A stretch of 64,000 nt of DNA from Somniosus microcephalus (taxonomy: Eukaryota), in the NCBI GenBank assembly GCA_052327205.1, contig CM126228.1, forward strand, positions 21,142,001 through 21,206,000, written 5' to 3'. Positions 4,376-56,338 of the stretch are shown here, piece after piece. The notes beneath the pieces were generated by a model, which was not told where the DNA came from, ran no database searches, and worked only from the letters and a program-made list of their open reading frames with translations. How positions within the stretch are numbered: the first letter of the stretch is position 1; each line of letters begins with the position of its first letter. A program made the translations under genes and the position numbers.

Positions 4376-4576
4376 ATACAAAAGCAAAATACCGCGGATG
4401 CTGGAAATCTGAAATAAAAACAGAAAATGCTGGGAACACTCAGCAGGTCAGACAGCATCCGTGGAGAGAGAAACAGAGTTAACGTTTCAGGTCCATGACC
4501 CTTCTTCAGAACATTAACTCTCCACAGATGCCGCCTTACCTGCTGAGTATTCCCAGCATTTTCTGTTTTTATTTTA
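4376..4576. mobile_element. Penelope-type fold-back element (inverted pseudo-LTR halves)
   Basis: About 57-bp inverted repeat (aaataaaaacagaaaatgctgggaacactcagcaggtc...gtggagag versus ctctccacagatg...cccagcattttctgtttttattt). It encloses a hammerhead core; a second copy lies at 43796-43986. Confidence 0.7.
4478..4512 (-). ncRNA. Minimal type I hammerhead ribozyme motif
   Basis: Minus strand GUU-CUGAAGA-AGGGUCAUGGACCU-GAAA-CGUU^AAC: intact CUGANGA and GAAA cores, stem II AGG(G)UC/GACCU, loopless palindromic stem III, and stem I GUU/AAC. Confidence 0.6.
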
Positions 4577-5827
4577 GAATGACCTCTGACCCTATCGTCT
4601 AACATCACTGCGTTAAACGAGTTAAACCAGTCTGCTTCCGGGAAATAAGGACTGCTGGGAGAGAAGTAGTTAGTAAGAAAGATGTATAAAAACACATTAA
4701 AATTGCTGGTAAGTGCGTCAAATACATATTTATTAAAGATGTATAAAACCATGGTGTCGAAAACAACTTAAAAAAAAATTTCCTCCAAGGTCGGATATTA
4801 CCTTTTTTATATATAACTTTGACGGGGTGGCCACTGTTCCAACAATGCTCGCCCCACAGGCATTTACACTTCAGGAACCCCCCAGGAGATTTCGGTGTAT
4901 GTAGTCCGACCTGAACTAGCTAAATCAACGATATTCCCCTCGAACACTAGTATGAGATAAAGTGGAGAGTTTCCAGCGTCAAGTTAGCTTGCCTGTAAAG
5001 TTCTACGCCCTCTACTTTCTATGCCCGTGCGAATGACAAATTAAAACTTTAATGGTTATACTTCACACACCCCAGTGCTTTAAAACGTTAAACAAATTTA
5101 AGATTCTTTGGATGTGCGGTCTTTCTTGCGAAAGGACCCTGCCTTTGTATATATTTTTTAAACATAAAAAAACGAGACTTTAAACATAGCGTAAGAGCCT
5201 TCTAAGTGACGAAGTGATATCTTGAACCTTGTTTTTTTTTGGCATTTTAATTTGTTGGGATCTGGCAGTGTTTGTAACACCCGAAGTGCCTGCTAAGATA
5301 TCTCGGAAGATGTTCGGCTCTGCAAGTCATACAGCATTTTTTTTTCTTCATCAGCTTTCTCTGAACATGAGAACAGAACTCTTTACCTGCAGATTGTATC
5401 AGAAAGGTTTGGTTGCTTGAGAAACCTACTATGTACACCATTGGAACAAACACGGATACATAAATTAAGACAGGAATCAAAAAAATATTTACATGAGACA
5501 AACGGGATTAAAATAAATCACAGCACACCAACATTTTTGCAGGAAATACTGACACGTATCTTAGCAGAGAATGGCTTACCCTGTAAAAAGGACTACTAAT
5601 AAAACACAAAAGCCCAGTTTAATTGAAAAGAAAAAAAATCAGGTTTCCTCCCACAACCAACCCCACACAACCCCCTCATCGCCAAAATACTTCTTCCTCG
5701 AGCGCATCAGAGTTCTGCCAAATCTACAAAATAAATAATTATAAAGCTTTGAAGTAACGTTAACAATTATCAAACTATTAAGTTCTGCCTTATCACATAG
5801 ACTCTCTATACAACATAACCCTAAAGA

Positions 5828-8800
5828 TTTATTACTATGAGGTATCTTGAGAAATTGGTTAAAGGATGCACGGCCTCCGTTTGTGTGGATACTCTAGGAC
5901 GCAAAAAAGAGCTTTGGTTGTCAGCAAAAAGTGGAAATATCCTTTGGTATCAAAGAAAGTTTCATTGCATGGTTGCACTGCAAAGCACCACGGTGAAAAG
6001 TTATTCCATTTTTCTTTAAATAGTGGCCTTTCTAGAGGCTGAGGTATTCAAGAGTAAGGTGAGAAGAGGTCAACAGCGGTTTAACACTTTGGTTCAAGCA
6101 AGGCACTCGTCCTATGATTTTACAAATTTTGCAATATGTTTGCCTATAGCTTTTTATGAAGAAAACTTCACACTGAGTGACAGTTGAGGGTTTAAGGAAA
6201 GAACGCCGAGTAGCCCACTCACGAAGGCCGTGCAAGAAAAATCTTTGGTATTCTTTGGTATCATCGATGTGATTAAAATCACGAATGGAAATCGAGTGAG
6301 GTAGCATCTTTGGTTCACACTATAAATAGTAGATCTTTACACATTTTTACACGTGGAAGCAGCTATTTTACCTTTGCTTCTTTGTCTTAATACTAGTAAA
6401 TGATTACCAAATGTATCGTAAAGCTAACCACACCACAAGAAACACAAGGCCAGAATATTGTTAAAATCCGGATTATTATCCATCGCAATGGCCTCCTGCG
6501 CATGAACGCACCTGGCTAAATGCCACCTTTGAAAATCCACTAGTACATTCTCTTTGTGCTGGGGGCCTTTTCTTGTTAAAGCGTTAGACAGTTTTCTTTG
6601 GTCGTCATAGAAGGGAATGGGGGGAGTGTAGGGGAAGGAGGATTATAAAATACTCTTCAAATTTATAACGGGAATTTAGTGGTAACATTCACTCAAGGGA
6701 AGATACGAAAACAACTGATAGAAATATATATTTCATATCACCCTAATTTTCCCGGCATGGGGGAGGGGAGATTGAGTGGACAGATAATAATCACAGAATA
6801 TGACTCCGACTCAAACTAAATTTGAAACCCTAAATATGTTTCAACGATTTTCAGAAATGTCACATTAAAGCTGCAAATAAACACCGATGTATTTTCAGAG
6901 AAATGGCGCCAGAGACCTTTCAACACTTTCAAAAGGGTGGGATTTCACACTAGGGAGAAATCGTTAAAAAGTCTAAATGCATTGCAGCATTTTCCTTTCA
7001 GAAAATGAGAGAAAGACAAATTCCTTCAACAGTTTAAATGCACCAATTACTCTTATTTTCTCACGACCTAGGCACCCATTTATGTGCCCCCACGCTCTGA
7101 CTATCACTTCATGATATAATGATATCCAGGTTTTTTTGGTTTTATATATGTACATTGTGTGATCCCCATTTGACAGTTACTTGGTTACAAAACAGTTCAG
7201 TTTTAAAATTGCGAAACAAAATAAACGTGAAGATGAACATTTACTTTGGGGTTTCGCTTGCATATTCAGTTAGAGTTGAGGTAAAGAAGTTATTTTAATG
7301 AGTCCTTTAACTGGAAACGACCATCGTCACAATTGTTGAATATAGTCAATCCTTGTCATGTATGTAAGACACGTGCCATTTACTTTGACAAGCTATAAGA
7401 TATGTCATACCAATGAAAGGGTCATGGCAGAATAGAACAACATTAACAACAGCAGTAGGCTTGTTAAGGCAAATTCAACTTCACCAGGTCGTTCGTCTTC
7501 TACTCCTGAGATTGAGTTATCAGTCTCTCTGCTCAAGCCTGTTTTGAGTCGCATGTACAGGTGTTAAGCCAATAAAGTCCAACCCGTCTATAACAAACAT
7601 TTTACTATTCGTGTGTCATGTCATACGCCCCATTAAGTTGTTGCCCAATCCAAGTACCTTGTTTGCACCATGACCCACTTCAGCTGATGGCACAGCTATG
7701 TGACACGATGGTATCCTGAAAGTGGATACTAAGACAGTCGGTCGGGTTACAAAATGGGCTGGTTTTCCACTGTAGCTCGCCGACTTCTAACACAAGTGCA
7801 ATGTTCCTGAATAAAAAGTTATCTTTGGTTTTTTAGCAGAGACTATACATGAATTTTTTTTAAAGCACAAAGGGTAATATGTAACTGCAACTGGGTGACT
7901 GAAAAGTTGCTTCCTGTCAAGGATAATACAGCTCTTGACCAAAACCTGAAACATATGGTGCTCAGTATCCCAGACTTGTATTGGACAGAGTTTGATCTCT
8001 CTTCTGTTTCACTGTGGGAAACTAACCTGAATCGTGTAACAACCTTTAGTGTTTACAGTATTGAGCAGTAAAGTGCCTCCCTTTTAATTGGTGCATCAAA
8101 ACGGTTTGCTAGTTTTACTGTCAGCATTTGCTGAACGGGAATGTAGAAACAATCCTTGTACTGCACTGACTGCCCAGAGTTAGACACTAAACGCTCCCAG
8201 ATCCCTGGAGACCAAAGTTGTGTAGATTGTTTTGGCAGCGTTGATGGGGTGGGGCGATTGCATCTATTATGGGCCAAGAGTTGAAACTTTCTTAACCAAC
8301 AATTTACCTAGTTCTGCATACTGGTTTTCTTTTTAATGTTTAATGATGAGGGAGTTTTTTATTTTTAAAAAGTGGTTCATTTTTCAGGATTTAATGCTCC
8401 TGGACCAATATATTTAACAAACTCTATAAATGATTATTTCCCTGACACATTGGGTAAGTACGGTTTAAGAGTTATGCTCTGATTATCGTTTTGTAGGTCA
8501 GGGGGTCTTAGAATGTACGATATCAAGGGAGTTAAAGAACTTTGCCCTAAAGCATAACAGACAAGTACTGTAAAATAAGTTAGTCGCGATAGTTTGTGTT
8601 ATTTTGTTCTTAAGTGGGACGCTTTCATATTGAATTCTTGGGTCAAATTTAGGCGAATTTGATATAACGTGTGCTTCCAAATACAGGCTAGACTACACCT
8701 GGTAGCTGTATCAGGAAAGGACTTCTAGTATTAATCACTGATTTGTTGTAACAGTCTGTTCAATGCAGTATTAATCTCTATTAGCGTGTTTGATAATGCG

Positions 8801-9753
8801 GAGCCCATGTGGGAAACCACACCACCCCTAAACACGTTGCCTTGTCTGCTGCGATTTGGATAGCAAGGAACACGGATAGAATGATGCCTAACTGATCCTA
8901 ATATTACTGGCAAATTTCTTTTAACACATAAAACAAAGGTTCTTCAAATACAATACCGTGTCATTAACTTAGTGTGCAAAATACATTCGAATAGAAAATA
9001 ACAAATGATGGATTTCAAAAACTCCCAATAAAATTAATATTTGTGCTTCTTGCGAAATCTCGCGGTCATCTATCCTGCTCTTTGCTATCCAACATAATCC
9101 ACTACACTGGGTTTGGTGTTGTTAAAGATTATTTGGGGCCGTTAGCTGTTGTATAATTGTTGCATTTCGTGCGCCAAGTGGAACAAAGAGGATGTACTAG
9201 TGTGAGGCGACAGAACAGCTCTCAGCACCTTGAACACTGTGCCCAAAATCGGCGCTTCCGGGTTCAAACAGCAAAGAGCTAGAATCCAATCACATTCCAA
9301 ATGAACATAGACGACTCCACAATTGTACGGTCGTGCCTGAGCACAACCTGCAGACCAGCCCCTTGCAAAGTCTCTGGCCACTGGGCCGTACACGGTACTT
9401 TTACAACATACACCTTCATGGTATTCCCGTAGAAGTGAAATGGGTCAATGTTTGAAGTAATGGTCTTTTCATAACAACATGACGATGCTCCCAACGACTC
9501 ACAGCCACACACGTTGAACGATGCTGAGTGTGATGAAAGTGTACGACCAGCGGCTTCTTTCTTACTTTTTTTTTGCAAAAGTCATAATAAAGTGTTGTAG
9601 AACGGAGTCCTAATGCAGGTCAATTAAGTCTTTGGTTTCGTTGGACATATAAATATTATATTGTCTTTGAGTTCAATAATTAAACCTGCTATCTGGAGGT
9701 CCTGGTCATTTATTTTAAAGCTATTCCACCGAGGTTTAGTCCGGGGGTCCCCT
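5828..9753 (-). promoter_or_regulatory. Inferred long ONECUT1 3' UTR with clustered miRNA seed sites
   Basis: Nine miR-9 seed matches on the mRNA strand between 5912 and 9636, plus let-7, miR-124 and miR-218 sites. Candidate AATAAA on the minus strand at 5833-5828. The distal end is uncertain. Confidence 0.6.
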
Positions 9754-10046
9754 TCATGCTTTGGTACAAGTGCTTGATGAGGAAGATGAATTGACTGAGT
9801 TGGTGCTGCCGTCATCCTGCCACTTATCCAAACTCCTCCGGCGCGCGTTCATAAAGAAGTTGCTGACAGTGCTCAGCTCCAGCCCCAGCTGCTGAGAAAT
9901 GGTTATTTGCAATTCTTTGGACGGACGCTTGTTTTCTTTGAATATTGCGTGTAGAGTTCTGCGCTGAACGTCTGTGAAGACCAGCCGAGGCTTTTTGGGC
10001 GTCGCGCCCCTCTCTTTGCCATGCTCCTGCTCTTTTCGTTTGCACG
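9754..10046 (-). CDS. ONECUT1: ONECUT1/HNF6 coding exon 2 (homeodomain and C-terminus)
   Basis: Not in the ORF track in the right frame. After the acceptor cctttgctttgcag| it reads (A)CKRKEQEHGKERGATPKKPRLVFTDVQRRTLHAIFKENKRPSKELQITISQQLGLELSTVSNFFMNARRRSLDKWQDDGSTNSVNSSSSSSTCTKA*, with the onecut-specific FFMN in helix 3. 293 nt; 1090+293=1383 nt = 460 aa + stop, and the phase matches exon 1. Confidence 0.96.
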
Positions 10047-11597
10047 CTGCAAAGCAAAGGAGGTAAAATGAATCGACCAGCCGAAGAAAATATCAGGCAG
10101 TTTCATAAAAAGGAACAGATGTAATGATCTGAACAATATCGAGTTGCATTATTCAGCCCAAGCTCTCTTAGTTTCCAAATAAGATCCCAATTAGTCATTT
10201 AACGATTCGAGATTTCTTCCTCAAGGAGCTATATGTCAATTTCGGGTCGATTACTGACAACAATTTAAATGTAACCAGTTGTATGTGAGTGGGGATATTG
10301 ACTGAACGGGAGTCCTCAGTGAAAGAGATCTCTGGAGAAAAATTTAAATATATGTAAAGATTTACACAAGTGGCAGGATTAAAGTCCCCCAGCACAGGAC
10401 GAAGGAATGTATTCTTTTATAAACAAGGATATTACAGCAACGTCGGCCATGCACGTCACTGCTTGCAACGAGAAGCAAGGATTGGGATTATGGAACGGCC
10501 ATTTGGGCCATCCATCTCATTCTGATCATTAAGTCTAGACTAGTTTTCTGTGCTGCCTTTTCTAATACCATTTCACTCCAAGTGCAAGTCCATATCTTCA
10601 CTTCTCTTCCTATTCAGGAATTCGCCCAACTCTGTAGAATCAAGTTAGGATTAGGGTTAGGGAATAACCTGTTCTTGGTATCATCTTGTCTCCCAATCTG
10701 ACACCTTTCATGTGCGAATACTGATACCAGAATTTGTTTTAAGGGTGGAGAGCTTTTTGAATATTTTTTGTCGGGGGAAATAAGCCTGTTGGAAAAAGCT
10801 TCGTTGCTGATACAGATAAGGAATGGATATTTCTATTAGATTCCTAATAATAGCAAAATGCTGTTCTACTGGAGAGCCCAGGTATATCAGATAGATGGTG
10901 CAGCTCTAACTGAATTCAAATCTATTACTGCAATTAAAATCTAACGACTACTTTCAAAAGGAACTACTTATTAAAGACAAATTATAGATTGACTTGATAA
11001 ACAGAATTGTTATCTATCAAACACTGACCCAAGTGAAATTGTTTTACAGTTTCTGCCGATAGATTAAACAGTCTTGTACCACAGTGCCTTTATCTTAAAT
11101 CCGTTTTACAAATACAGCAAAACCAAATATTTTAAACTTTCAAATTGCACTTGAGGCCGTTCGCTCAATGACACAATGGCGGTCTTTACAAATTGATGTA
11201 ATATTACTTAGAATTCAACCTTTGTCTCTTGCTTGTACTCACCACAATCAAGAAGAAACTGCTTTTCGTTTTGGATTTTTTTTTAAAAATGCACACTGCT
11301 TAGTACAAAGCTTTCAGTTGCCAATGACTACAGTGTAAAATAGAGCTGTGGCTGTCCAATGAAAGATGCTTCAGCGGAGGTCAGAGAGGTGAGAGGCTCA
11401 TTCCACACAGAGAGGCACCTAACCTGCAGCCCAAGATAAAGATAAATCTGCCAAATGTCATTTATCATGGAAATAACTAAGGGGAAGAGGAGGATATCGA
11501 TCAAAATTACTTCACTTAAGGTCGCTGCTTTTAAAAGGATGTGAACTTTAAAAAAATGTTTTGGGTAACCAAACGGAGAAAGAATGAAACTGCGAAC

Positions 11598-11618
11598 TGA
11601 GCTGTCCGTGGTGCTGAA
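11598..11618 (-). promoter_or_regulatory. RE1/NRSE (REST binding site) in the ONECUT1 intron
   Basis: Minus strand TTCAGCACCACGGACAGCTCA matches the canonical TTCAGCACCACGGACAGCGCC at 19/21 positions, with both half-sites and the 2-bp spacer intact. Confidence 0.85.
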
Positions 11619-12113
11619 TCCCATCTCCACGCCCCATTTGGCCAGCGATGCGGCCCGGGGACCCGAGGGTTAAACAGCAGAACTTGCACAGGCGCTGACT
11701 GCTGTGTAAACAGCGTTTGCGCCACTGGTCCCATTTCAACCCTTTCTAAACCAACCTTAGATTGTAAAATTAAGCACTCTGCCCATTGTGATTAAAATAA
11801 TAACCCAATTAATCTCTAATCCCAGCATATTGTCTGTTTTCAGAACAGAGTTGGTTAAAATCTTTCTAAAAGTTGCATTTTATCCCTGCTGACTGTAACT
11901 GGGACAACATCGTCATTAAATCATGGAGGAATTCATAACAATAGAACGGCGCCCTATTCCACGAGACTGCTGCCTCGAGCCAACGTCCAGTGTTTACCCG
12001 TTGTACTAAATTACGTGGGCTTCACTTCACTGCTCACTGTTGCAAACGTAGGTGTTTATATCTCTAAATATTTATTCAGTCCATGACGTAGGGAACTGAA
12101 GCCACAGACTCAA

Positions 12114-12127
12114 CCAGTAGATGGCGG
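12114..12127 (+). promoter_or_regulatory. CTCF motif in the ONECUT1 intron
   Basis: CCAGTAGATGGCGG matches the CTCF core CCASYAGRKGGCR. Confidence 0.6.
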
Positions 12128-15100
12128 CCTGGTCCTTTGCAACATGTCGATTGTGACCAGCAAACAGTAACTCATTTGGTCTTTGATTATTTGAATTAGT
12201 TCCAGCTACATACCAAACATGTGGACACTAAGGCTACGTTTTCATTATGAAGGAAGACTGATAGAACTATGTAAAGTCATCTTTTGCATATGTTTAAGGC
12301 TAAAGGCGGAAAAGCGTCCCATCGCTCCTTTAGATTTGCAATTTGTTCAATTTGGAAACACTAGTAAGACTGTATAAATGTAATGTTTTTGTTATTTACC
12401 ATTCGAAGGTTTTAATATTAGGTTTAACAACACATGTTTTTTAATCGAGTGTGTTTAATTACATTAAATTACACTCAAAATCCCAACAAAATATTACTCC
12501 CTGGAAAAGTAAGGCATTCACTCCAATGTGGGAGCGAAGGAGGATCCCATCTAAAGTACTACAATACTTTATTTTCTAATTTGAAAATAAACGTACTTGT
12601 TATGAACATTTCTTCTGAGTATCTCTGGCCACAACAAGCAACGCGAAGTGGCGAAGTGTCTGAAATAATAATTGTGCACATTTTTAAACAGCTCCTGCTG
12701 AAACGCTGTAACTACAAGCTGTGCCAATTTCGCAGCAGCCACAGGGCGCCTTCCTTTGCCTCCCTTTAATTGCTTCCACGTCATTTGACCTAAATCAATC
12801 ACTTCACTCAAATTAGATATAGGCAGATAACACTTTAAACTTCATCATTTACCTATTAATTACAATCGTCGTCATCTTCGTAAGTGCAAAAAGGCTATCA
12901 ATAGTGCTTTTAATTATTTACTGAAACCTAATCGAAACGAGACTGTTACACAAATGGCCAGAGAATGAACTAAGAGGAGCTTGTAATTCTATTCTAAAAT
13001 CCGCGGTTTGACATTGTGTTTTGGTTGTAAAAATCATTGTACCCCGTAAACAACTGCTGAAAGTCTGCATGTATAGTATACAGAGACAGACTTCATCTAA
13101 TATTGTAAATTGAATAAGTACACTCGAGTATTCTTAGCCCAAGACTGAAAGTGAAATATTTCGAAAACTATGCTATATTTAAAAATTGTTAATGTCTTTA
13201 AAGAGGAGATTGCATTACCTGCCAGAATATCAGTAACATCGTTTAAATGCTTGTAAATGCCTTCAGTTTAGACAAACATTAACAGAAAACAAATGTGGTT
13301 GGGTATTAGGTAGTTATAAATCAATAAAGTTACAAGGACACTGAGAAGCAAAATCAGGAAATGTCACAGGTGTAGAACTTTCCCAGAGTCCAACTATTTA
13401 GCCTAAAATATTCCAGAACTCGTATCGCATCTCTTATCGTTACAAAGCAAACAAGCAAATAGTGTGCAACGTTGCAAACAGTGGGAACCAATGTTTCCAA
13501 ATGTAACTAACATTCTAAGTCCATGAGAAACCCAAAAGCTTCCATCCAAATGAGGTTGTTCCAATCACACAAAGGAGCCCGTCATACTCTCAGGGAGCTG
13601 CTGGAGTGGTTTAGAACCCAACAAAAACATAGAAACGCACGTCTGCGCATTGGTGGACAGGTGAATTTCTGGGTCAGAATTTTAATTAAAGTAATTAATC
13701 ACAAGGGAGCTTTCTGAAAAAAGATGTCCTATAATTCTTGAAACATATCGAGGCCTTGTTAGAGGAGACAGCTGGAATAATTAAACATTTCAGGTTGCTA
13801 AGCAACGCAACATAAAATAATAAGGAAATTATTCACAACTTTTGTAAAATGTCTGTTTCACAACTTAAATTTAACAATAAAAATTACACCTTTCTCTTCT
13901 GCCACTTATGTCTGATTAGACCCCAGAAGTAAATACAAATAATGAATGTCTTGCACCATTGATGCACACTTGCTAGTGTGTAGTACCTGGCACTAACTGC
14001 TGTGTAAATTAGAGAGCAATTCACCCAATTTATACCGTTGTTTTTACAGTCTTGAAGCACATTCATCTTAGATCTGAATAGACTTGGCGTTTTAGGTGCT
14101 GCAAGAACACACTTTATAAATATCACAATAAAAATGTGGTTGGATTGATTGTAGCTGAAATTTACACCAGTCACGTCTGCACTTATAAGAACACATGAAC
14201 ATAAGAAATAGGAGCTTGTTTTTTGTGTGTTTGCAAATCACTGTTTGGAATTAACAACTTAATAGCAGTAATAAGAAATGGCGAATACTTAGAGTAATGG
14301 TTGTCCCTTTTCGTAAATAAGAAATATTTAGAAATTCAATCTCAACTAAATGTAACTCCTTAAACCCGTGACATTTGTTTGCGCATGTCACTGTTAAATG
14401 GGCCGAAACTGGAGAACTGACATGTTAATATATTCACAAAATACCGTTTGAAAAGGCTATTTACATCCGTGGGCCTGCTGAGAAAATGCAGATAAGTGGC
14501 TGGTATCTCAGCTGGCCTCGACGGATTCCTGTAATATCTGTTTTATGTACATTTCCACAATCTGCAGATCCTGACTTCCCCAATTATATCAGGGCGCAAC
14601 ACAGATAAGTGGAAAGAAAAGTTGAAATACCCTCTAAATACCCGTAACAACCAATGGGCGATGTTAAAACGATATTCATTTGAATCGAATTAACTCACTT
14701 GCAAATATTGTCAATAATTACCTGCGCGCAATCCAGGAAAATTTTCCAACAATTTCGAACGCTTTGAAACGTCTAACAAGCACCTTTTGTTTTATATTCT
14801 TGATTTTAAAATTATTGCAAATACTCCACCTTGTTAGATGAATGAACTCATTATATATTTTTATGGGAATTAAGTTCTGAAGAGATTTTTACATGGCGAA
14901 TTATCAGGCATATTGTGAAGCAGTGATAGTTAATAAGCAACATGTGGATACTGTGAGGTAGGACATTTTTTGACCAGCGTATGCTGCATTTTGTGGAGTT
15001 AAGCACTTTCTTGTCCCACAACTACAGCCAACATGTGTCAATTCTCCGCTGAATGGGCCATTTAAGTTGTTTCGCCAATTGCCCTGAAACCTGCCACTTG

Positions 15101-18100
15101 CTGTCCCCAAAAAGGCTGTTTGTTTACAGTAGAGTTTTTCCTCCATTATGGTCAAAACCATCTTCCATTGTTTGGAAATTATTATCTGAAAATGATTCAT
15201 TACGTCAGTGTAAGATTTGTATTGTGTCATAGCGTTCGTCTGTGTAAATGTAAAGCCAAGTACGAATAAAATCTGTCAGCTACCTTTTTAAAAATCTAAG
15301 AAACCAATTAAAAATGCAATAAAAAATCGTGCACTTAGATTTTTCAAAGTAAATGTGTATAAAAATGGGGTAAATCTAGATTTGAAATATGAAGAAGGAA
15401 CAAAATGGAGGCTGGAGAGGTCAGACTTGTAATTAGTGTCCTCTGCTTACATTTGAAGACAGTACAGGAAGTGTCAAGACCTCAATATTCCTTACATGTA
15501 ACTACCAATTTTTAGACTGTTTGCGGGAGGTTCAATGTAATCTCGGTGCTAGAAATCCCCCAGGGAGCCGCTGGATGAGGCAAACACAGGAGGCTGGCTG
15601 GACAAAGCAAGGAGAGAGCCGTATGAATAACACATTTCACTTAGCCCATAAAATTGTTTCAGCCTCTTCACAGAAGGACGTTTACCAAAAAAAACCCTTA
15701 TACAAAGCAATGAAACCGGCTGCTGTTCAGGTACAGGCTGGCAGGAAGACGGAAAGCAGCCCAGATTAACAGCTGTTAAATAATCACTCCCACACACGGT
15801 GTGCTTTCAAGATTCGGCGTGTTAACTCCGCCAAAAGATCAAAAACATAGCAAAGGTATCCAAGTTAATGAACACTTTGTTTACCTCCAATATCTGCCAC
15901 ATAATTCATTGTTTCTGTGTGGGATTTTATGGGAATTGTTTATCGGGCTAACACATTTTGCTATCTAATTTGTTAGAATTATTTCTGCAAAAACATGGTT
16001 ATGCACACGTATATCATATATTCAGACAAGTCGTTTCTTTAATTTTCTGTTTAAAAGAGGATCTGTGTTTTTCAGTGTAAAAGAATAAATAATAAATGAA
16101 TTGACTAAATAATATAGCACAGGTTAGGACACGATTAGATGGCTTTCCATCAGGTTGTTGTGTTTAGCACTATAAATATAACGACTATACGTAAACATTT
16201 ATTACTTAATGGACACACACAAAGAATTGTAATGTCTGAGATATCGCAGCTAACATTCCAATCTCCTTTAAAGGCCACGGCGAACTGAAATAAATGCATA
16301 TTAATAAGGTAAACAGAAAGGGTCTGTGGTTAAAGAGGTGATTAGCAATCCAAATCAGTGTGTGGGTATTTTCTATTGAGATGGAGACGTGACCTGTTCT
16401 AACATCAGCCAGCCCGCCTTGGCAGCGTTTACCTTCAGATAACACCCATAAGACTCGACAACATATTCTAATTCAAGTGGTTGTTTCCAGTATCGATCCA
16501 TGCAAATAAATGTAGACTGAGGTCGACAAAATTGTCGTAAAAATACACTCAAGGCTGCTTCTAAAAATCGAACAATGCGAATGTTATCAATCGTTCGATG
16601 GAGATTTCTTGGCGAGCTATTTACTCAACCGTACGCATGCTCTCAGAGCGATTGGATCTGGATTTTAATTATAGGACATGAAGAGCTGAAAATAGGTCAG
16701 TTTCTACAAATATATATACATTTATATATATATACGGTTTGCATGTGTCTTTTGCTATCTTGTGTAAGCTACGATTTAATATTCAAACGGGGCTTTCCGT
16801 GGCCAGAAGCAACTTTCTAAGTATTGCTCAATATTTTTTCTGCGAATAATTGAATTTTAACGAGGTTAGTATATTATTTTCTAAATAAAGTAGATTTTCA
16901 GATGAAACTACAACCTTTGCTGTAATCCATTCTGAAGTAAACGTTAGACTGCTAACGCACTGTGATTCGTTTTAAAACCAAAACCAAGTTTCCATTACGT
17001 TTTACAGCTGGGATCCGGAGAGTTCTGCATATTAATTGCTTTCCCATTATTATTATATATATAATCGCACTTCTTTTACAAAAATGACACACAATACGGC
17101 GAGCAAATACAGAAAAAAACCAGCCTTCCTTTGTGCTCTTGAAGTCTGAATTAAAAATGCCCACAAGTGCACGTCAGAGCCTGTGTGAAACGGATCACTG
17201 CTCCTGACTCTGGCTCAGATTGACTGTCTTTCGTTCTCTTGGGAAAAATTAATGGAGACCTATCAGTTAATTAACAAAGCCTCACGCAGGGCCACACCGA
17301 GAGAACAAACCCAGGCTGTCCTCACTCGGTGCAACACAATTCAAAAGTTACCAAAAGTAACAAGACGCCTTTTTTTCATAAATCACTGGCTACAGATCTG
17401 ATGCTTAATAAATCTGTAGGGCTCGAAATGACACCAATTAATACTCTGCATGGCTTCCTGTAAACTCGAGTCAAACGAGTATGTGAAACCAATGGCTAAT
17501 CATTTAATTTCATGGGCTTCAAAACAAACACATTTGGATTCCGGTCTGTCCTGGAAAGGTTGGGTTACTGATTTAACTCTACAACGCTACTGTAAGGGGG
17601 AGCGGTCGATTGTCAAAGGCGTTTGGATTCTCGTCTGGCTCTGAATACAACCGAGTCACAAAACTGAAGTGACATTTTGTGAGATTAGTTTCCATTCTAC
17701 TGTAGACAGACCCGCACCAGTGCAGTTAGATCAGCAACCCGGGGCTGCACTGGTCCCCTTGAACAATTGGGGCACGGGGCACAGGTGCAATGGGACTGCA
17801 AGTCGAGAGAGACAGGGGCTGCACCGCCGCGATCGCTGTGACAATAAAAACATTTACTACTGTAACAGAACTGATCAGACAAGTTTGGGATTGAGGGCTG
17901 CGTTCGATTGTGGGTTAGGATCCTGGTATTCGAACTAGACTTAAGAGAGCCCAATTATAAACAACCTTTTACTAGAATGGGGGTTTCTGTCTTGTCCTTT
18001 TGTATCATAGTCGCCCCTGTGAATCTCTTTACTGACACGGCCATTGTGTGACCATAGCACCAAGTACAAGACCCATTCACAGAGAGAGAGAGAGAGCGCG

Positions 18101-18111
18101 CTGGTCCTTAC

Positions 18112-19201
18112 CTGCCAACCTCAGAGCCGACATTCGTTGGAACTCAGGCTCTTGTAGCCACTTCCACATGCGCCTGAAGGTCTCCCGGCCCGACTTGAGT
18201 TTACTCCAGGGTTTGGGGTTCCTCAGCAGGTCGGACAGGGTCCCCTGCGAGCGGCACAGCACCCGCTGCGCGAAGATGGCTTGCGGGATGCTGTAGCGCT
18301 TCAATTCGGTGGTGATCCTCTGGGCGATTTCTTTGGTGTTGATCTCCTCCAGCTGGCCCGAGCCCCCGCCGCCGCTGGACTGCGATCCGTTGGAGGAAGG
18401 AGGCTGCTGCTCGGCCCGGCCCGAGCCCAGGACCTGCCCGTGGCCCTGGGCGTGCGGGTGGACGTGCGGCGGGTGGTGGTGGTGGAGCCCATTGATGGGC
18501 ACCATGCCCACGGAGGGAGGGCTCAGCCCGCGGCTCAGGTGCTGCTCCCCCCGGCTCAGCATGCCCGGGTGGCCCTCGAAGCCGTTGGGGGTCAGCATCT
18601 TGTCGCCGGGCATGGGTCCGGCGTGCCCGTAAGGTGGCAGGCCGTTCTGCGAGTTGTGGATGGTGCCCAGGCCATTGGGTAGAGAGGAGCCGGACAGAGG
18701 CGACAGGCTTTGGCCCATGCCGGCCATATCCTTGTGGTAGTGGCTGTACAGATTGTTCATCGAAGTCAAACCCCTGTCGTCTCGCATCAGGGTGAAGCTG
18801 CCGCTCACGTTGCCCGTCAAGCGCTGGTGGTGATGGTGGTGGTGGTGGTGATGGTGGGCGAACTTGTCGGAGACGGTGGAGATGGGCGGCAGCGGCTGCA
18901 GCGGGGTCAGGGTGGTGTAGGTGCTGCTCATGCTCATCCCCGGCGGGGTCTCGCAAGCCATGGTCATGGTGGGGTGCAGCGGGGCGGCCAGGGCGTGCTC
19001 CGGGGGCCGGTGGTAGTCGCCCGGAGCCTCCAGGATCGAAGCCATGCTGGACACCATGGAGCGAGCGTGGACCGGCAGGTTGCGGTGGCCGATCGGGCGG
19101 CCGTGGGGACTCTGGCCGCTCATCAGGTCGCCGGGCTGCACCGGATCATGAGCCACCCCGTGCAAATCGCCCAGATTCTCCATCGACAGCTGAGCGTTCA
19201 T
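18112..19201 (-). CDS. ONECUT1: ONECUT1/HNF6 coding exon 1 (N-terminus, TP box, poly-His, CUT domain)
   Basis: Translation MNAQLSMENLGDLHGV...TYTTLTPLQPLPPISTVSDKF-H10-QRL...EEINTKEIAQRITTELKRYSIPQAIFAQRVLCRSQGTLSDLLRNPKPWSKLKSGRETFRRMWKWLQEPEFQRMSALRLA. The MNAQL start and the ITTELK residues favour ONECUT1 over ONECUT2/3. The exon ends at a canonical donor GCAG|gtaagg (intron starts at 18111); 1090 nt, phase 1. Confidence 0.95.
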
Positions 19202-29475: not shown

Positions 29476-31004
29476 ATTTGCATGGTACTGCACTTTATCT
29501 TAATGAGTTGGTTTGGTAATCTCAGTTCACGAAGACGGTAGCCTAACATTTGCATATTTATCAATAATATATTTGTAATAGTTTCAGATTAATCCGCCTC
29601 GATTAAACTAAATTGTTGTATTTTAATGAACATGACCATATGAACAAGGTACTGCGGAAATTGCACATTCGGGATGGTCATTAAGCCAGTACACCTACTC
29701 TTCGACAAATGCGCTGTAATTTGTGCACCGAACTCTCAAATTCTCTGAAATATGTGAGATATTAAAAGCTGGAATCTACACGTCACTTCCTGTTTTTACC
29801 ATTCAGAAAAAGTTTGCAAGGTCTGGTTCTGCAGTCAAACGAAACAGAATTAATGAATTACATTTATTGAAACATGCCAAAAGTACTCGGAGCTGCTCAA
29901 TCCTCGATGTTCAGTCACCACCAACAGCCAGGACCTGCTCCCCCGTTTACGCACAGTTTCAGCTCATTTTTGTCCAAAGTTTCTCATTTTAAATTGCCAA
30001 ATTCTTACTTGATTTGGGACACACACACACACACAGTGTTTAGGTTTTGGGCTGGGCAAATTGCAGTAAAAACTGCCTAACGGCACATTCCTGTTTCTTT
30101 ACACTTCCATCCCAGCTCACATCCAAATATATTCTCAGTTCAACACTTTTTTTAAAAATCTCCCCACCCCCCCGGCCCGGATGTTGACATCTCTTTCCAA
30201 GGATTGAACGCGGCGCCCTTTCTCCCCCACGTCCTTTAACAGGAGTGTGATGCTGCAGGTTCTCCGCGCCCCTGACACACGCCCTGGCCCTCGCAGGCTT
30301 TCGGAGCTGGTTCGCAGGTCCGCTCCTAAACTCAGCGGGGTGCCCAATGTCACTGGGACACTGTAGCCGATGGCTATTGATAACCGTATCCCTTGGATTT
30401 ACCAATTCTGACTTTAACGGTGCATACAGATATACTTACCGAAATCCGTGCAAAAGGCATATTTGCATCATTTCGTGGCATGTTGCATCTCATAAACATC
30501 CACAGGCAGCCAGATCTCGTACATGCCCCAAGCAAAATATATCTGCATAATTTCAATTGGAAGATCTGCTGCTTAGCTCCTGTCCCATCTTTTTAACTCT
30601 TTTTTTAGGTGCTTAAAATAGAAAAGTTTATCAGCAGGTGATCGCTTGTCCGGGGGATCGCCTGCAGTCAGTCGGAGAATAAGACCATTCGGTCCCCGGG
30701 CCAAGGTAATCTCCAGTCCCCTTTGGCCCATCCTTGGGAGTTCAGGAGAAAGATCAGAGATCGCCCCCCGCGCCACCCACCCCCCTCCACCCCATTCCTC
30801 TCCGTCTCGCTTTCACCAAACGGTTCGTCGGAAAATAATGTTTTTTTTTGAAAAAAAAGATAAACCAAAAGCCTCCATCCCTGGCCGTGGGGCAGGCAGC
30901 TCGTTTCGGCCAGTATATCCTCGCATTTGGAGATGCTGCTTGCATTTGAATAGCGCTGGCTTGTTATGTATCTCGCTGGTATGAAAGGGAATCAGTATGC
31001 AAAT
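29476..31004. promoter_or_regulatory. Candidate upstream enhancer with four perfect octamer motifs and a GC/CpG-rich patch
   Basis: ATTTGCAT at 29476, 29548 and 30461; ATGCAAAT at 30997; CpG-rich stretch at about 30150-30900. Confidence 0.4.
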
Positions 31005-34000
31005 TGCTTCAGTTACAATCGAAAGGTTCGATCTGAAGTGGATGCTAACGGAAGTGGATGTCAGCTATCTCTGCATTAGCCGAGATATATCTGCCCAGTG
31101 ATGCAGCGGTTTAAAATTCTTGTTAATTAAAACAACGAGCGAGCTTGCAACATGTCTGCTTTCTCTCTCTTCCCCCCCCCCCCCCCTCCCCCGTGATCAG
31201 CCCCTTTAACACAATTATTATTCTGCAGGTGTTATTTGATGGCTTGTAGTGAGTGTTTGTGCAATACAACAGGCTAAGTGCTTGCAGTAAGGATCTGGGC
31301 ACCAGCTCTAGATCACAGAGCACCCCCCCCCCCCCACCCCCCCAACCGCAGTCTCCAAATCCAAACGTTTACCAATCAATACATGCAAGAAATGAACCTG
31401 GAGAAAAAAAGATGTGTTGCTGCGGTTTAACGGTTTATCCCAGGCAAATATACAGCACTGCCTTACGTCAGTTCTACCTGGACCAACCTTTCACTCGCTC
31501 AAATCCGAGGAAAAAGAAAGATGGGTTTGATTGCGGTAACGTGCTGTCTGTTCCGACTGCTATAGGTTAAAACTGCCCTTTTTGACCCCTCTCGCTGCAA
31601 AGCCAGAAATCATATAACATTCCAGATGTAATGTCGGTGGACTTGGGCGACATGCTCTCAGAAGACAAGCGGGCGGACGTTTTAAGGGTTATCATTAATG
31701 GTGATTTGGATTTGTTTTTCATCTTAGAAAGGAAGATTTTAGAGCTGACAGCACAATATAAACCCACGGCCGCTGTCGTGTTTCTCACCGAAAGGGATAT
31801 TTTATTGATCCACCTTCTTGAAAATTGCATTGGCGCTGGTCCCAGGTCATTAATACCCAAACTGTGCTTCACAGCAGCTCTCGGAGATGCGCAGTGTTTT
31901 GAATGACGGGGCTTCCTGTTAAAACAACCCGGGAAGCACCAAGCCTCAGAAAACCATTTTTAACAGAAACTTTTCGATTCTGAGATCAAAGCCTTTTGCG
32001 GATATTAATCCATAAGGTGGCCTACAGTTCCCTATCCTTTGAAATAAAATTGTTGGTATATTGTTTAGACAGTAAAATTATTGGAAAATATATTTAAAAA
32101 GATAGCCACCCCGCCATGATTTTTTTTAATGTGCAATTGTCAGCAAGTTCCTTATATTTTCTCTTTCAAGTTTCAGATTTCTTTTATTCAGCCCATTTTG
32201 TGTTTTAATTTTGAGCAAATCTTCGTTTGCCGTGGAGTCTTACGCAGCGAGCCGTGCTGACAATGTTGTTACAGAATAGCAGCGCGCCGACTCCATCCCA
32301 CTTGTCTAAATGATCAGGGAGAATTCTTAAAACCCTGCTGTGTATCTATTGACAGCTGACTTTATTCATACGGGACGTACTTAGCTGACAGTCCCCAGTA
32401 TGCGTCTCCGATTTGCTCACGCCACCAAAATCATTTGGGCTATAAGGGCACACCTTAGCAACCTTGTAATCCATTTTGTTTCTAATAATACTGGAATCTA
32501 ATTCATTTGGAACATAACGCAAACCAATTGATGGAGATGGGAGAAGAACCCCTTTGCAGTGAGGCTGATTTTGACAGGAGAGCGCTATAGGTGCTTTGCT
32601 CTCTGCGATGATCTTACGGTCTCGCTGCTGCCTTGCCCCAGTTGAAGCTTATGGCTAGTCTAAGCTGACCATCTGTCATTCAATTAACGTTTCAAGGCAG
32701 CTGATCTGTAACCAGGAGGGTCAGCGACCCCAGGACAAACCCAATGCTGCCAGAGAAAGGCGACAAAGTTCAAATGTTAAACGCCTGGCACTTTACAGAA
32801 TTTGGGCAGCCCAGGAAATTTGCCTATGTAAAGCTTGCATTGAGGTCTCCCGGGAGTCAACACCCAGATTTCGATTTAAAGATGTCAGCATACTTACACC
32901 ATTTTATTCTTCTGAAAAACCAAAAACACTCTTAGCGAACAATAGATTAACAGGGGCTGGGTTTTGTTCAATGTCACGTTTAAAGTTGTATCAGTTCTTC
33001 TGGAGATGGGAGTAGATTTGAGCAAAACACTTTTTTCCCCCTCTTGTAAAGTTACGCAAATTTCCTTGAGGTGATTTCTTGCTGCAGGGATATTCTAAAG
33101 CGACTGGAAGACGGGGAGGCAGAATCGCAGAATTAATGAAAGTGACTCAATTGATTTGTCAGTAAGCGGCAAAATTTACCGCCACGTCATCATAATCATA
33201 ATTCATAACCCCCTCCCATTCATGATAAAAAAAATTTGGAATTTCCAATTTCTCATTCTATAAATCCTAAGCAGTCAAACTTACCCGGAATATGAAACAG
33301 CGCCTTGAATATCGAGAATTTTTATTACAGTCTGCAACTTGGTTATGTTGGTGTCGTAAATTCATGCTTGGAATGTCATCCTATACACAATTATTTTTAA
33401 AAAATCAGGTATTCTCTAACTCTTAAAATGTACACACAGCCTATAGAAATACAGGTCTAACGAGTTATCTAAAGCTTTCCCTCGGAAGACCAGGACACAT
33501 TGAGCTTCAGCTATGCTAATTGATTCACTATAAATATTTAACTAGCGTCCTCATTGGAGCAGGTACGATTGGGCTTCTTTCTAAACACGTGTAATCTATA
33601 GTCAGAGTTCATCTGCATCCCTGTACTTTGAGGAATGTTCGCTTCTATCTAGATTTGTTCTGTCCTACACCCAAATTGGGCGAATACAAATACTGCAGGT
33701 AGAAAGCGGAATGATATTCGAGCAAAATAACGCAATTTCTACGTCGGATCGATTGGCCACGAATTTTAACCTTTTAATCATAATTTTCTTTTTAGATCCC
33801 AAGAAAGTGAACCCTTCTTCCCAATAACATATTTTCAAGGCCCATCCTTCAAGTATTGAGGCATATAACTATTAATATTCTGAAATATAACTGCTGTTCG
33901 GGAATGTGTAGGATATTATTCAGAGCTTAATAGCTTCTGAAGATATTGAAAAATCAGCAGAAATTATTTCAGGTCACGTGGAGGGTCTAAGCTAGTTTCC

Positions 34001-47813: not shown

Positions 47814-48103
47814 GGCCAGAACTGTGCCTACCTGGGTGGGTCCAGTGTGGTTGGTGTCCGTGGGGGGTCGCGACCCCGCTGCTGTCTCCATCCCGCTGTT
47901 GAAAATGAGCTTACCTTAATGGGACCTATTAAGCCCGCCTAGCGCATTGCCCAACCCAATGAGATGGAGCTGGTCTGGTGACATCATTCATGATGCGTTT
48001 TCAGCCGGGATCCTTAAAGGGACCATGGCCACATTACTTCTGAAGTTTTATTTAACCTAGTGTTGTCAGTGCATAATACTTCTGAGGGATTCCTACTGCA
48101 ACT

Positions 48104-50056
48104 ATGTCCAGCACCAGACAAAAGTGTGCACCCCGATTCGATGAGGTCTCCCTCCAAGCTCTGGTGGAGGGACCAAGAGCATATAAGGAGGTGCTCTTTC
48201 CTTCCTCAGGGAGGAAAAAGCCTCCACAACAGACCAAAGCTGTGTGGCTGCAAGTGGCCCAGGAGGTGAATGCAATTTCACTGTGCAGCAGAACCTGGCT
48301 GCAGTGCAGAAAGAGGTTTCATGACCTTCTACGCACAGGAAAAGCGAGTATTCCATCCCCATGACCCTCAATCTGATCCCCATCGCCTCTCATCACCAGC
48401 ACTCTGCTTTGTCAACCTCCTCCTCCACATCCCACTTCACCCTTACATCCCTGCACCTTTACCCATTCCTTCTCTCTGTATGTTCACATTCACTTAACTA
48501 TTCGACTATGCAGCCCTCACACTCCCTATCACTGTGATGCTATGACAACAACTTACAACACACAGGGAGGGCCCTTGGTCTTGGCACCTCACTCCATCTT
48601 TGTGTCCTTCTAAGCATCTATGCTATGGATTCTCTACACTCACTCCTTCATTCTCACTCAAACTCCACTTGTGTCCCTCATTGCAGGAAAAGAAAGCCCA
48701 CAATAACAGGGAGAGGGCAAGGACAGGAGGAGGGCCACCCTCAATAGCCCAGCTCACCACTGCAGAGGAGGCAGCCCTGGAGATCGTGGGAGTGGAGGAG
48801 GATGCGCAAGTGGGGGGATGGACAGACGGGCGCATCACAGCAAGCTGGTGACAGAATAGTTTTGCATCTCTCTCATTGACATTGCATGAGTGACTGATAT
48901 GGATTATGATGCTTCAATGTGCACGCAACGTTTATCTCACATGTCTAACTCTTTCCTTTACTCCCCCACAGGACCATCGACAGCCCCCCTCCCCACTGTC
49001 CAGGAGGAACAGCCTGAGCCACCAGACTCCTCAGAGGAAGCTGCAACCTCTGAGGGTGTAGCGTCAGTAGAATTAAGCGCACCCAGCACCAGCGCAGAAA
49101 CTCACACCTCGGTGGGACCTTCGCGAGATAGAGTAGTGTTGTCACCTGGTGTATCACAGCTCACAAGTGAGCATCAGCAGATGGTGGAGACAGGGACAGC
49201 AGTGGAGAGTCCTCGTCGGAGAACGCAGGACTCTCCCAGCTCGGCTCAGCTGCATATCGACCTGGTGCCTCCGGGTCCATCCAGAAGGAGAGCGGAGCTG
49301 GAACTCCAGGAACAGGTGCAGGAGTCTCTGGCAGGTTTTGTCTCCAGGGTCACTGCAAGTGTGGAGCCCATCGCTAACATGAGCAGAGCCTTTGTGGAGG
49401 CGTTGGCGCATAAACGCATCACCATGGAAAGGATGGCAACCTCCATGGAAAGGATGGCTACCTCCGTGGTAAGGCTGGCTACCATAGAGGAGAAGATGGC
49501 TACAGTAGAGGAGAGGATGGCTACGGCCATGGAGGAGCTTAGTCGCCAGTGTTTTGAAAACATGGTCATTGTTCAGAATAGACTGACATCTCTTGAGGAG
49601 CGATGGTCAGCTATTGAGCAGAGAAACCAGACCTTCATGGAAGTCCTCTGGAGTAGGACTTCCATTGCAGAAACGGGTCCTCATGGCTCCCCTGAAGTGC
49701 AGCAAGGTGCTGTCAAGCCACTTGCTAGCTCTGAAGTGGGGCTGACCCATGAGAGGGATGTTGGTGGCAGACAACAAGGAAGTGGGGGCTCCTCTTCAAG
49801 CGCTCACATGACCATGCCACTGCAGAGCCCTCGGTCAGAGCCCCACCAGAGTCCACACCCAACTGAGATCGGCGTCTCAGCCCCTGCATAGCCGCAGGAG
49901 CAGCAGACTGTTGGCGAGCCCTCACAGGCTCGCAACCCCAAAGGATGCTCGCCAAAGGTGACAAGGCAGGAGCAGCAAAAAGTGAGCAAGGGGCCTCCAC
50001 ATCTGCTGATGCCACAGGGGAAGCACCATGTAGGAGCACGTGTAAGAGGAAGATAA
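48104..50056 (+). pseudogene. Harbinger A Myb/SANT-like DNA-binding protein, three exons (48104-48343, 48687-48847, 48972-~50056)
   Basis: MSSTRQKCAPRFDEVSLQALVE...AVWLQVAQEVNAISLCSRTWLQCRKRFHDL, then exon 2 EKKAHNNRERARTGGGPP (typical TGGG motif). Donor 1 is gcgagt. A one-base frameshift (probably in the G-run near 48812) and a stop at 49889-49891 inactivate it. Confidence 0.8.
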
Positions 50057-50320
50057 AGCACAAGTAGTCACAAAGGTAGTCACTTGGGTGTTCTGTTGTG
50101 CTTACGTTTGAAAAGCCATCCGTGAATTGAGATGATAAAAAAATTTGATGGCAAACTGTTGAAGTTGTGGCCTGTCATTTCGCAAATGGGACTTCCAGAT
50201 TGAGGGCTTAGGATGACTTGCAATTGTCAGTATGGTGGCCAGAGTGATAGGAATCCGCAGGTTCTTGTCCATTGTTGATACTCTGGTAAGGTATGAGGCA
50301 AAAGTGTTTGATTGGGCAGG

Positions 50321-51749: not shown

Positions 51750-52621
51750 GCTTCTGGTATATACCTCAGTCGAGGAAGTGCTCAGTCAAGGTGGAGAGAT
51801 GTCACACTGGAGATGGGTGTCAGGCTCCAAACTTCCACAACAATGAGTAGGCCTGCTAAAAGTTCCCTCAGACCTGAGACAACAAAGTTCTGCCACCTGC
51901 AAATGATCATTGCTGAAAACTCCTTTTTAATGGTGGAGCTGCAGCTGTTAGTAAGCAGTCCACTTGTGAGGCCACCAGGATTAACTGGCGTGTTCCAGAG
52001 GAGACGTGCAGGACAGGGGAAATGTGTTAAATTCAGAAAGGCCTCTCAAAATGGGATTATAGAGGCACTTAACTGGTTGTTAAGGGCCTTAAGGGCCTAT
52101 CCCACCTCTTGGAGGCGGGATGGAAATGGGGTCTGAAACCACAATTGTGGGAAAATTGCTCAGAGGCGGGATTGGGCCCGCCCGGCTTTTTTGCGATTTT
52201 AACACCTCACAAGCCCCCAAACTCGCCTCCTCGGGCCTGGCAAAATCCAGCCCAGAAAATCCAATGGGGAAAAAAGTCGGTATCGACCATTTTGGGGAGT
52301 TAACATCAGCAGGCCGCAAATTTTAGCGCCCGCCGCAAATTAGCGCCGGCGACCGCGAAATTCGTCTCTGAGGCTCCTGAAGGTGATTGGAGCGCTAAAT
52401 CAAGCGCTACACACTTCTCTTAGGGCGCTAACGTCAGGGAATGGAGCGCTACCTCAGAGCGCTACTCAAGCTCAACCGATGTCAATGACCTTGTATTCAG
52501 ACAGACTGGAACCTTGCAGTTCTTAAAAGGGAGGGTCCATCATGCTGCACAGCCTCACCCTGCTCATTGCTGTGTTTGACCTGGGTCTGCAAGGAGGTGC
52601 AATTCTTCAACTAGGAATCTC

Positions 52622-54510: not shown

Positions 54511-54645
54511 ATAACATTTTTAGAACAAATGGGGGGAGTGTGTGTACCAAAGTTGGGTGTGTTTGTAAATATATTGTTCAGTTTGGTAAGAAGTATTTCC
54601 GTGTGCTAAGAACCAGTTCTTTTTGTTCATAAATTGTGTTTGTTT

Positions 54646-56174: not shown

Positions 56175-56338
56175 TTATTGGTTGTGTTTAATAAGACACG
56201 GTTGTGCAGAATAATAAATGTTTATTTCAATGTTACGAATTTGGTCATGTTTCTCATTGGAACTTTGGCTGGTCATAGGGGTTGCGAGGTGGCTGTAATG
56301 ATGTGGTTGTTGATCCCAAATGCCATCTGCTCTCTCAT

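Follow-up and report, generated by a model that had tools for sequence, protein, structure and literature searches.

A predicted long 3' UTR with clustered miR-9 and let-7 sites behind shark ONECUT1

Do the miR-9 seed words that crowd the 4 kb behind a shark ONECUT1 gene belong to a long, microRNA-regulated mRNA tail, or do they have another origin? We addressed this question in Somniosus microcephalus (assembly GCA_052327205.1, contig CM126228.1, 21,142,001-21,206,000); this stretch of 64,000 nucleotides is called the window, and all coordinates are window positions. The gene lies on the minus strand. Coding exon 1 (18112..19201) is an open reading frame with a CUT domain (Pfam, 1.6e-34), His tracts and a GT donor, and coding exon 2 (9754..10046) follows an AG acceptor, carries a Pfam homeodomain and finishes with the CTKA-stop end, the stop codon being 9754-9756; the intron between them spans 10047-18111. 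The identity of the protein to two shark sequences of HNF6 is 94.2% and 92.2%; across four shark HNF6 proteins it is 87-94%, and for amniote and teleost HNF6 about 80%. The exon 2 homeodomain scored 159.7 bits against PDB HNF6 and 128.3 bits against ONECUT2, ONECUT2 being the sole comparison. With CUT domain and homeodomain spread over two coding exons, and nearer to HNF6 than to ONECUT2, the predicted gene is well supported as a shark-type ONECUT1/HNF6.

The miR-9-5p heptamer ACCAAAG occurs ten times on the minus strand in 5912-9765, nine times past the stop and once in the last codons (T-K-A). A sequence-only reading of this DNA had placed all of these sites correctly, quoting 8mer starts for the 8mers. 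It had also put the copies in the remaining ~60 kb of the window at about 8; the strand-specific scarcity holds, but the exact number is 9. The plus strand has 6 copies window-wide, 1 of them within the 5912-9765 region. The miR-9 arm sequences that we used are mammalian (checked against PMC7294468) and may differ from the shark's own miR-9. In 5800-9753, 9 miR-9-5p sites were observed against 0.48, 0.55 and 0.78 expected from 2-, 3- and 4-let shuffles, with 0 of 2000 shuffles reaching this number at each order, so that the comparison with a shuffled background called for by the earlier reading bore it out (9 against 0.5-0.8); six are 8mers, against 0.13-0.32 expected. Under Markov orders 1-3, ACCAAAG was the top 7-mer of this region; CCAAAGA came second, and TACCTCA, a let-7 word, third (or fifth at Markov order 3). 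Six of the nine sites are packed inside 396 nt (P=0.003 vs uniform placement). The opposite strand of 4700-9753 held one miR-9-5p and one miR-9-3p match, and seed matches stood above chance on the mRNA strand, as in a canonical target, for miR-9-5p, miR-9-3p and let-7.

Could such an excess be functionless, the product of chance, of a repeat or of a local duplication? Several sites have common flanking letters (GATACC or AATACC), which would fit old short duplications. However, the shuffles at three orders speak against this explanation, as do the absence of any BLAST match of the region elsewhere in the window, the fact that none of the 20 largest repeat families listed covers the cluster, and the teleost conservation described below; it is already largely refuted, and we give it almost no credence. 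No Rfam family matched in 5830-40000, and neither CpG content nor local AU content was informative. Alternatively, the words might work in the DNA, as factor-binding sites of a 3' enhancer rather than as RNA sites. The reverse complement of the miR-9-5p word presumably resembles a TCF/LEF-type motif, clustered motifs near a developmental gene would fit, and ONECUT1 is described, in the excerpts available to us, as having long-range enhancers. Against this, the orientation is 9 to 1 in favour of the mRNA strand, 6 of the 9 sites have the terminal A that miRNA 8mers typically carry, three seed families share both the enrichment and the strand, and the best-conserved block shows two distinct registers of match to miR-9-3p; we regard the enhancer explanation as very improbable.

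Both the gene identity and a long miR-9-loaded 3' UTR draw support from the statistics and the strand bias, from proximal conservation in a teleost and from what is known of the OC1 UTR in bony vertebrates. This predicted UTR is well supported and would extend over at least 3.9 kb (5828..9753, minus strand), a stretch enriched in mRNA-strand sites and with no repeat in common with the rest of the window. It had been called hidden, and in kind it is not, since TargetScan already lists OC1 UTRs that are long and have 12 conserved miR-9-5p sites. Minus-strand AATAAA hexamers are found at 9709-9714, 8358, 5828, 4729 and 4568. The candidate distal poly(A) signal, at 5828..5833, comes 5 nt after the last let-7 site, and its downstream GT/TG count of 10 is at the 90th percentile of the 52 minus-strand AATAAA. 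The alternative, more distal hexamer at 4729..4734 would lengthen the UTR to about 5 kb and has a downstream U fraction of 0.48, above the 90th percentile; between the two signals are a miR-9-3p 7mer-m8 (5742-5748), a miR-9-5p 7mer-A1 (5105-5111) and two words, at 5430-5437 and 5486-5493, that we take to be of Pumilio type. The 3' end may lie beyond the distal cluster, near 4729. As for the proximal hexamer at 9709..9714, it is present as had been reported, directly after a miR-9-3p site, and it is a doubtful poly(A) signal. An isoform ending there had been proposed to escape nearly all sites; this reading is weak because the teleost locus has no hexamer at the aligned position, the downstream context is unremarkable, and the conserved miR-9-3p site at 9715-9722 would still be retained.

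The distal cluster (5838..6314, minus strand) comprises miR-9-5p 8mers at 6307, 6252 and 6242 and 7mer-m8 sites at 6087, 5942 and 5912, a let-7 8mer at 6297 with 7mer-A1 sites at 6040 and 5838, and a miR-124 7mer-m8 at 6100; two pairs in it (6307/6297 and 6252/6242) have a 10-nt pitch. The seed words used for let-7, miR-124 and miR-218 are those that we take to be correct, and the let-7 word may differ from the shark's. With a 7mer-A1 at 7277 that had been overlooked, let-7 has 4 sites of at least 7 nt in the UTR region, against 0.32-0.34 expected. Enrichment is marginal for miR-124, which gains a 7mer-A1 at 7465 (2 vs 0.39 expected, P=0.06), and for miR-218, with an 8mer at 9041 and a 7mer-m8 at 8670 (8670..9048) and a 7mer-A1 at 6554-6560 (3 vs 0.65, P=0.03), both P values being before correction for several families. 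The multi-miRNA module that had been proposed stands for miR-9 and let-7, and miR-124 and miR-218 were set aside as core parts of it. Elsewhere in the UTR, miR-9-5p 8mers lie at 6595-6602 and at 7822..7829; the latter adds in-register pairing to nt 13-16, and an in-register run of 4 was found at 0 of 75 background sites. The 7mer-m8 in the last codons (9759..9765) is also present in the teleost locus. It probably has no effect, and its letters are for the most part dictated by the peptide; miRNA sites in ORFs have a weak effect.

The region is also predicted to fold. The distal cluster has z=-2.66 on the mRNA strand and z=-0.87 on the opposite strand, and two nested inverted pairs span the UTR on the minus strand: 9183-9202 with 6538-6557 (19/20 complementary, beating 300 of 300 trinucleotide shuffles) and 8085-8106 with 7028-7049 (19/22, reached by 10 of 300). 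The top 20-bp long-range helix thus exceeds chance. These helices and the distal fold would suit a long UTR that serves mainly as a structured sponge, or as a separately stable miR-9 RNA, most protein coming from a short isoform. The site-rich human OC2 UTR is reported to be rather resistant to miR-9 and was proposed to be a ceRNA (PMC10356556). OC1 in mouse Neuro-2a cells was not lowered by miR-9 in a study that describes mouse OC1 as being without sites; a site-free OC1 isoform can therefore dominate in some cells. On the other hand, the human OC1 reporter, mRNA and protein all respond to miR-9, a miR-9 sponge de-represses chick OC1, and the tandem 8mers of the shark cluster are mostly unpaired in the predicted fold. 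A mainly sponge-like role is accordingly unlikely in our judgment. The supplements of a mouse APA atlas (PMC12097126) contain no Onecut rows.

The other arm of the mir-9 hairpin was absent from the earlier reading. The UTR has 5 miR-9-3p sites against 0.62-0.70 expected (P ~5-8e-4): an 8mer at 9715-9722, 33 nt past the stop, a second 8mer at 6865-6872, 7mer-A1 sites at 7860-7866 and 6576-6582, and a 7mer-m8 at 6419-6425, these last two within 6419..6602, all on the minus strand. Each 8mer is accompanied by a 5-nt complement to nt 14-18 of miR-9-3p, in register at 9728-9732 for the first and at 6883-6887, with an offset of +5, for the second (6865..6887). This 5-nt match was found at both UTR 8mers and at 0 of 53 background sites; a 3' pairing run of at least 5 characterizes 2 of the 5 UTR sites against 0 of 53 (Fisher P=0.006, post hoc). 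Moreover, the supplementary 5-mer has just two copies in the 3924-nt UTR candidate, each preceding a miR-9-3p 8mer.

The first of these sites lies in the best-conserved block of the UTR. The vertebrate comparison was one teleost HNF6 locus, L001, the sole vertebrate-type locus among 30 found (33 of 64 parts scanned); its protein resembles cichlid and croaker HNF6 at 97%, and it reaches 763 nt past the stop, covering the proximal UTR. The block 9713..9741 (minus strand) is identical to L001 at 27 of 29 nt, it is the only match below E=0.5 between the UTR and the 30 loci (E=2.3e-5), and its local score of 48 compares with a maximum of 40 in 1000 shuffles. Within it, the seed and five contiguous supplementary pairs are in register in both the window and L001. 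The miR-9-5p 8mer at 9629..9636 is also kept, within a 12-nt exact word at a similar distance from the stop, so that in this one locus both proximal sites are conserved above their flanks.

Seed, central gap and 3' pairing, kept in shark and teleost, are also what a trigger of target-directed degradation (TDMD) of miR-9-3p would have, in which case ONECUT1 mRNA would, through 9713-9741, adjust the amounts of the two miR-9 arms relative to each other. The duplex energy of this site, -17.3 kcal/mol, is the lowest of the miR-9-3p sites examined (background minimum -13.7). However, its 5 contiguous 3' pairs fall short of the minimum of 6 seen in 12 of 13 validated triggers (PMC10899785), no literature linking ZSWIM8, miR-9-3p and a trigger was found, and miR-9 is not named in the main text of PMC10620050. 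The trigger reading was set aside on the pair count, and we hold it to be highly unlikely.

Two further lines of evidence were rejected. Human OC1 UTR primers (PMC10914762 supplement) gave no usable anchors: the forward primer had P=0.66, and the best place of the reverse primer, 7872-7891 (P=0.062), was equalled by 2 of 27 control tiles. A pre-vertebrate miR-9 link was sought in invertebrate Onecut loci, where 8 sense sites were counted against 4.5 expected (P=0.09); the four 8mers among them came from two related loci and were not at aligned positions. The 30 loci were reduced to 26 screened, leaving out L025, L027, L029 and L030 (partial or weak matches), and to 13 counted, after L006 and L028 (near-duplicates), L013 (23 nt downstream) and L017-L022 and L024 (ending at introns) were dropped; L010 and L012, also dropped, have one sense 7mer-A1 and one antisense 8mer, which would weaken the strand bias.

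Altogether, we propose that the 4 kb behind ONECUT1 most probably form a long mRNA tail whose miR-9 (both arms) and let-7 sites lower the gene as neurons mature. Transcription would continue through to the AATAAA at 5828 or 4729, Argonaute would load at the miRNA sites, and the closely spaced distal sites might act cooperatively. Both hairpin arms would act, the less abundant 3p arm with the help of supplementary pairing at its pair of 8mers; every isoform would retain one of these 8mers. The timing role is transferred by inference from chick and mouse work. We speculate more tentatively, with the odds against it, that in jawed vertebrates both arms have exerted a two-tier control of ONECUT1 ever since their last common ancestor. 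In this scheme the cluster of guide-strand and let-7 sites, which lies 3.5 kb away in a distal segment that would be folded and optional, would be the developmental timer. If this holds, the timer of neuronal birth order formed by miR-9 and Onecut, described to date in bony vertebrates, would go back to the split between sharks and bony fish or earlier. The conserved miR-9-3p site would then offer a compact, editable way to ask whether the star strand has ancient targets of its own, with five supplementary bases and one seed open to mutation in zebrafish, chick or mouse.

How does this arrangement compare with known systems? Regulation of ONECUT1 by miR-9 is already known in mice, humans and chickens, and the shark case is what a specialist would expect. 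In human, the predicted targets that the two miR-9 arms share include ONECUT1 (PMC10931570). A let-7 co-cluster and 3'-supplementary miR-9-3p sites were not found described in the portions of the OC1 literature available to us, and PMC11675081 has no passage on sharks or miR-9. In chick motor neurons, a miR-9/Onecut temporal switch (Luxenhofer et al. 2014, as excerpted via PMC4284387) closes the window of early-born neurons, whereas the shark role is one that we infer from the DNA. The miR-9-3p seed with 5 bp at nt 14-18 fits the 3-5 bp of the 3'-supplementary class and is one pair short of the six of TDMD triggers (PMC10899785). Human ONECUT2 also has a site-dense long 3' UTR (14.6 kb, with 13 conserved and 13 non-conserved miR-9 sites; PMC10356556), and its miR-9 sites 7 and 8 are two nt apart (PMC10914762), a spacing comparable to that of the tandem 8mers at 6242/6252; however, it is a paralogue, and its UTR is three to four times longer than the shark's. 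Another close system is the OC1 UTR of bony vertebrates. Although cartilaginous fish stand outside the human, mouse, chicken, frog and fish comparisons, and the 9-10 shark sites are known here from sequence, the two have in common an orthologous gene, many canonical miR-9-5p sites and a multi-kb UTR.

The gene in this window is a shark-type ONECUT1. It has two exons on the minus strand, exon 1 (18112-19201) with the CUT domain and exon 2 (9754-10046) with the homeodomain. Against solved structures, exon 2 scored 159.7 bits with HNF6 and 128.3 bits with ONECUT2. Exon 1 shared 87-94% identity with four shark HNF6 proteins; for teleost, amphibian and amniote HNF6 the figure was about 80%. Below the stop codon (9754-9756) lies a predicted 3′ UTR of 3924 nt, the UTR candidate. 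The coding sequence itself carries miR-9-5p matches on the minus strand (an 8mer at 18330-18337, a 7mer-A1 at 9914-9920 and a 7mer-m8 at 9759-9765), which may be set by peptide or codon choice; both exon 2 matches are also present in L001, a teleost-type HNF6 locus.

The sequence-only reading had described a long UTR rich in miR-9 sites, and all the sites it listed are present. The miR-9-5p excess holds against a shuffled background: the seed match ACCAAAG occurs nine times after the stop (5800-9753) for an expectation of 0.48-0.78, a count reached by none of 2000 shuffles at each of three orders. A ranking of the region's 7-mers that names no miRNA beforehand puts it first. The opposite strand of the region contains a single copy; these words could be taken for enhancer elements, but that reading leaves the strand bias unexplained. 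The sites are also clustered, six of the nine falling within 396 nt (P = 0.003). As for a multi-miRNA module, let-7 sites are clearly in excess (4 versus 0.3 expected), whereas miR-124 (2 versus 0.39) and miR-218 (3 versus 0.65) are only marginally so. No second copy of the region was found elsewhere in the window, and no Rfam family matched it.

The unbiased ranking also raised GCTTTAA, a 7mer-A1 match to miR-9-3p (sequence from the accessible part of PMC7294468) that was absent from the sequence-only reading. Sites of at least 7 nt for this arm number five, with 0.62-0.70 expected. A metagenome search with exon 2 as query gave 30 loci. A single one, L001, is vertebrate-type, and it encodes a protein 97% like the HNF6 of cichlid and croaker. 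When the 3924-nt UTR candidate was compared with all 30 loci, the sole significant DNA match was the block 9713-9741, identical to L001 at 27 of 29 positions (E = 2.3e-5; score 48 against a shuffle maximum of 40). The first miR-9-5p 8mer (9629) is likewise kept in L001; this comparison spans 763 nt past the L001 stop, and the conservation results concern the proximal UTR only. Within the block, a miR-9-3p 8mer is accompanied in exact register by five bases able to pair with nt 14-18 of miR-9-3p, and shark and L001 share both. The UTR candidate has the five-base word at one other place, ahead of the second miR-9-3p 8mer (6865-6872). Such a 3′ pairing run accompanies two of five UTR sites, against none among 53 in the background (Fisher P = 0.006, post hoc because the pairing was noticed after the alignment was viewed). 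Because the block extends beyond seed and supplement, other constraints may add to its conservation. Target-directed miRNA degradation, in which this site would act as a trigger, is unlikely: the site offers five contiguous 3′ pairs, versus at least six in 12 of 13 triggers in the accessible part of PMC10899785, and we found no paper joining ZSWIM8, miR-9-3p and a trigger. The conserved supplementary site is cheap to test.

Several miR-9 and let-7 sites (5838-6258, minus strand) share a GATACC or AATACC flank, as if one duplicated core had given both site types. AACCAAA, the match to a 5′-shifted miR-9-5p form, occurs six times in the UTR candidate for about one expected (5912-9637, minus strand), mostly overlapping canonical sites, and a shifted 3p form also fits two miR-9-3p sites.

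AATAAA hexamers lie at 9709, 8358, 5828, 4729 and 4568. The first, directly after the miR-9-3p 8mer, had been proposed as a possible source of an isoform escaping nearly all sites; the hexamer exists, but the isoform is doubtful because the hexamer is missing in teleost L001, and the miR-9-3p 8mer would be retained. The last let-7 site is followed by the hexamer at 5828. Downstream of this one the sequence is GT-rich, and downstream of the hexamer at 4729 it is U-rich. Because two Pumilio-type words and two further miR-9 sites sit between these two hexamers, the UTR could extend for either 3.9 kb or about 5 kb. A 20-nt inverted pair (9183-9202/6538-6557) beats 300 of 300 shuffles; by itself it does not favour the mRNA, since on the opposite strand its one mismatch would become a G-U pair. 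A nested 22-nt pair (8085-8106/7028-7049) was reached by 10 of 300 shuffles, and further arms of this long-range set join 6221-6234 with 5867-5880. Folding of the UTR by such nested arms would place the distal cluster of miR-9-5p and let-7 sites (5838-6314, minus strand) closer to the coding region. For the distal 500 nt, the mRNA strand folded at z = -2.66 and the other strand at z = -0.87.

An older, pre-vertebrate miR-9 link received no reliable support from the invertebrate Onecut loci. Elsewhere in the window, a 61-nt inverted repeat (4408-4578, arms 90% complementary around a 49-nt spacer) lies shortly past the final candidate poly(A) signals and resembles a small mobile element. A CpG-rich island (30000-33000), 11-13 kb upstream of the ONECUT1 start, is possibly regulatory; its 106-codon open frame (31586-31906) had no Pfam match. 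The GC-rich stretch 48000-58000 holds DDE_Tnp_4 transposase fragments (50321-50845, 56555-57103), likely from Harbinger-type elements, beside long ORFs without a Pfam match (48890-49891, 53016-54023); LINE-like reverse transcriptase fragments were recognised by eye nearby. In two related invertebrate Onecut loci, the coding stretch for the end of the homeodomain occurs again beyond the first stop (L007:1470-1520, L008:1000-1050), which suggests tandem alternative last exons. L008 has three miR-9-5p 8mers behind the gene (2130-2620), and L007 is without them at aligned positions.

The site excess is real and, judged from sequence, the UTR candidate is the shark counterpart of the known miR-9-loaded ONECUT1 UTR. 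The long UTR would be made in neural tissue, where the distal cluster would be occupied, probably in a cooperative manner, by miR-9-5p and let-7 complexes, and ONECUT1 would be lowered as both miRNAs rise; the minor 3p arm would bind the two reinforced sites. Luxenhofer 2014 is said to describe the chick miR-9/ONECUT1 switch, and Simion 2010 reportedly deals with miR-218. In the accessible parts of the following sources, the chick switch is summarised (PMC4284387), Onecut is up-regulated in miR-9-2 knockout retina (PMC13060328), ONECUT1 is a predicted target of both miR-9 arms (PMC10931570) and the 3p arm is minor yet present in deuterostomes (PMC3834235). Among the matches listed, in a search thin in subscription papers, we found neither a description of a shark Onecut UTR nor a supplementary miR-9-3p site in ONECUT1. 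Human ONECUT1 is repressed by miR-9, with no repression in mouse Neuro-2a cells (PMC10914762, in part). As far as the available text goes, the same paper has mouse ONECUT1 without miR-9 sites and unresponsive in Neuro-2a, whereas a 2026 preprint gives 12 conserved sites. The conflict could stem from annotation of a short as against a long UTR, or from genuine isoform choice. The paralogue ONECUT2 is named as being targeted by miR-9 and by miR-218 (PMC7961372), and its 14.6-kb UTR is described as a possible sponge (PMC10356556), both from partial texts. Its sites 7 and 8, two nt apart, are the strongest PAR-CLIP sites in the accessible part of PMC10914762, and the same two-nt gap is seen in the shark pair 6242/6252.
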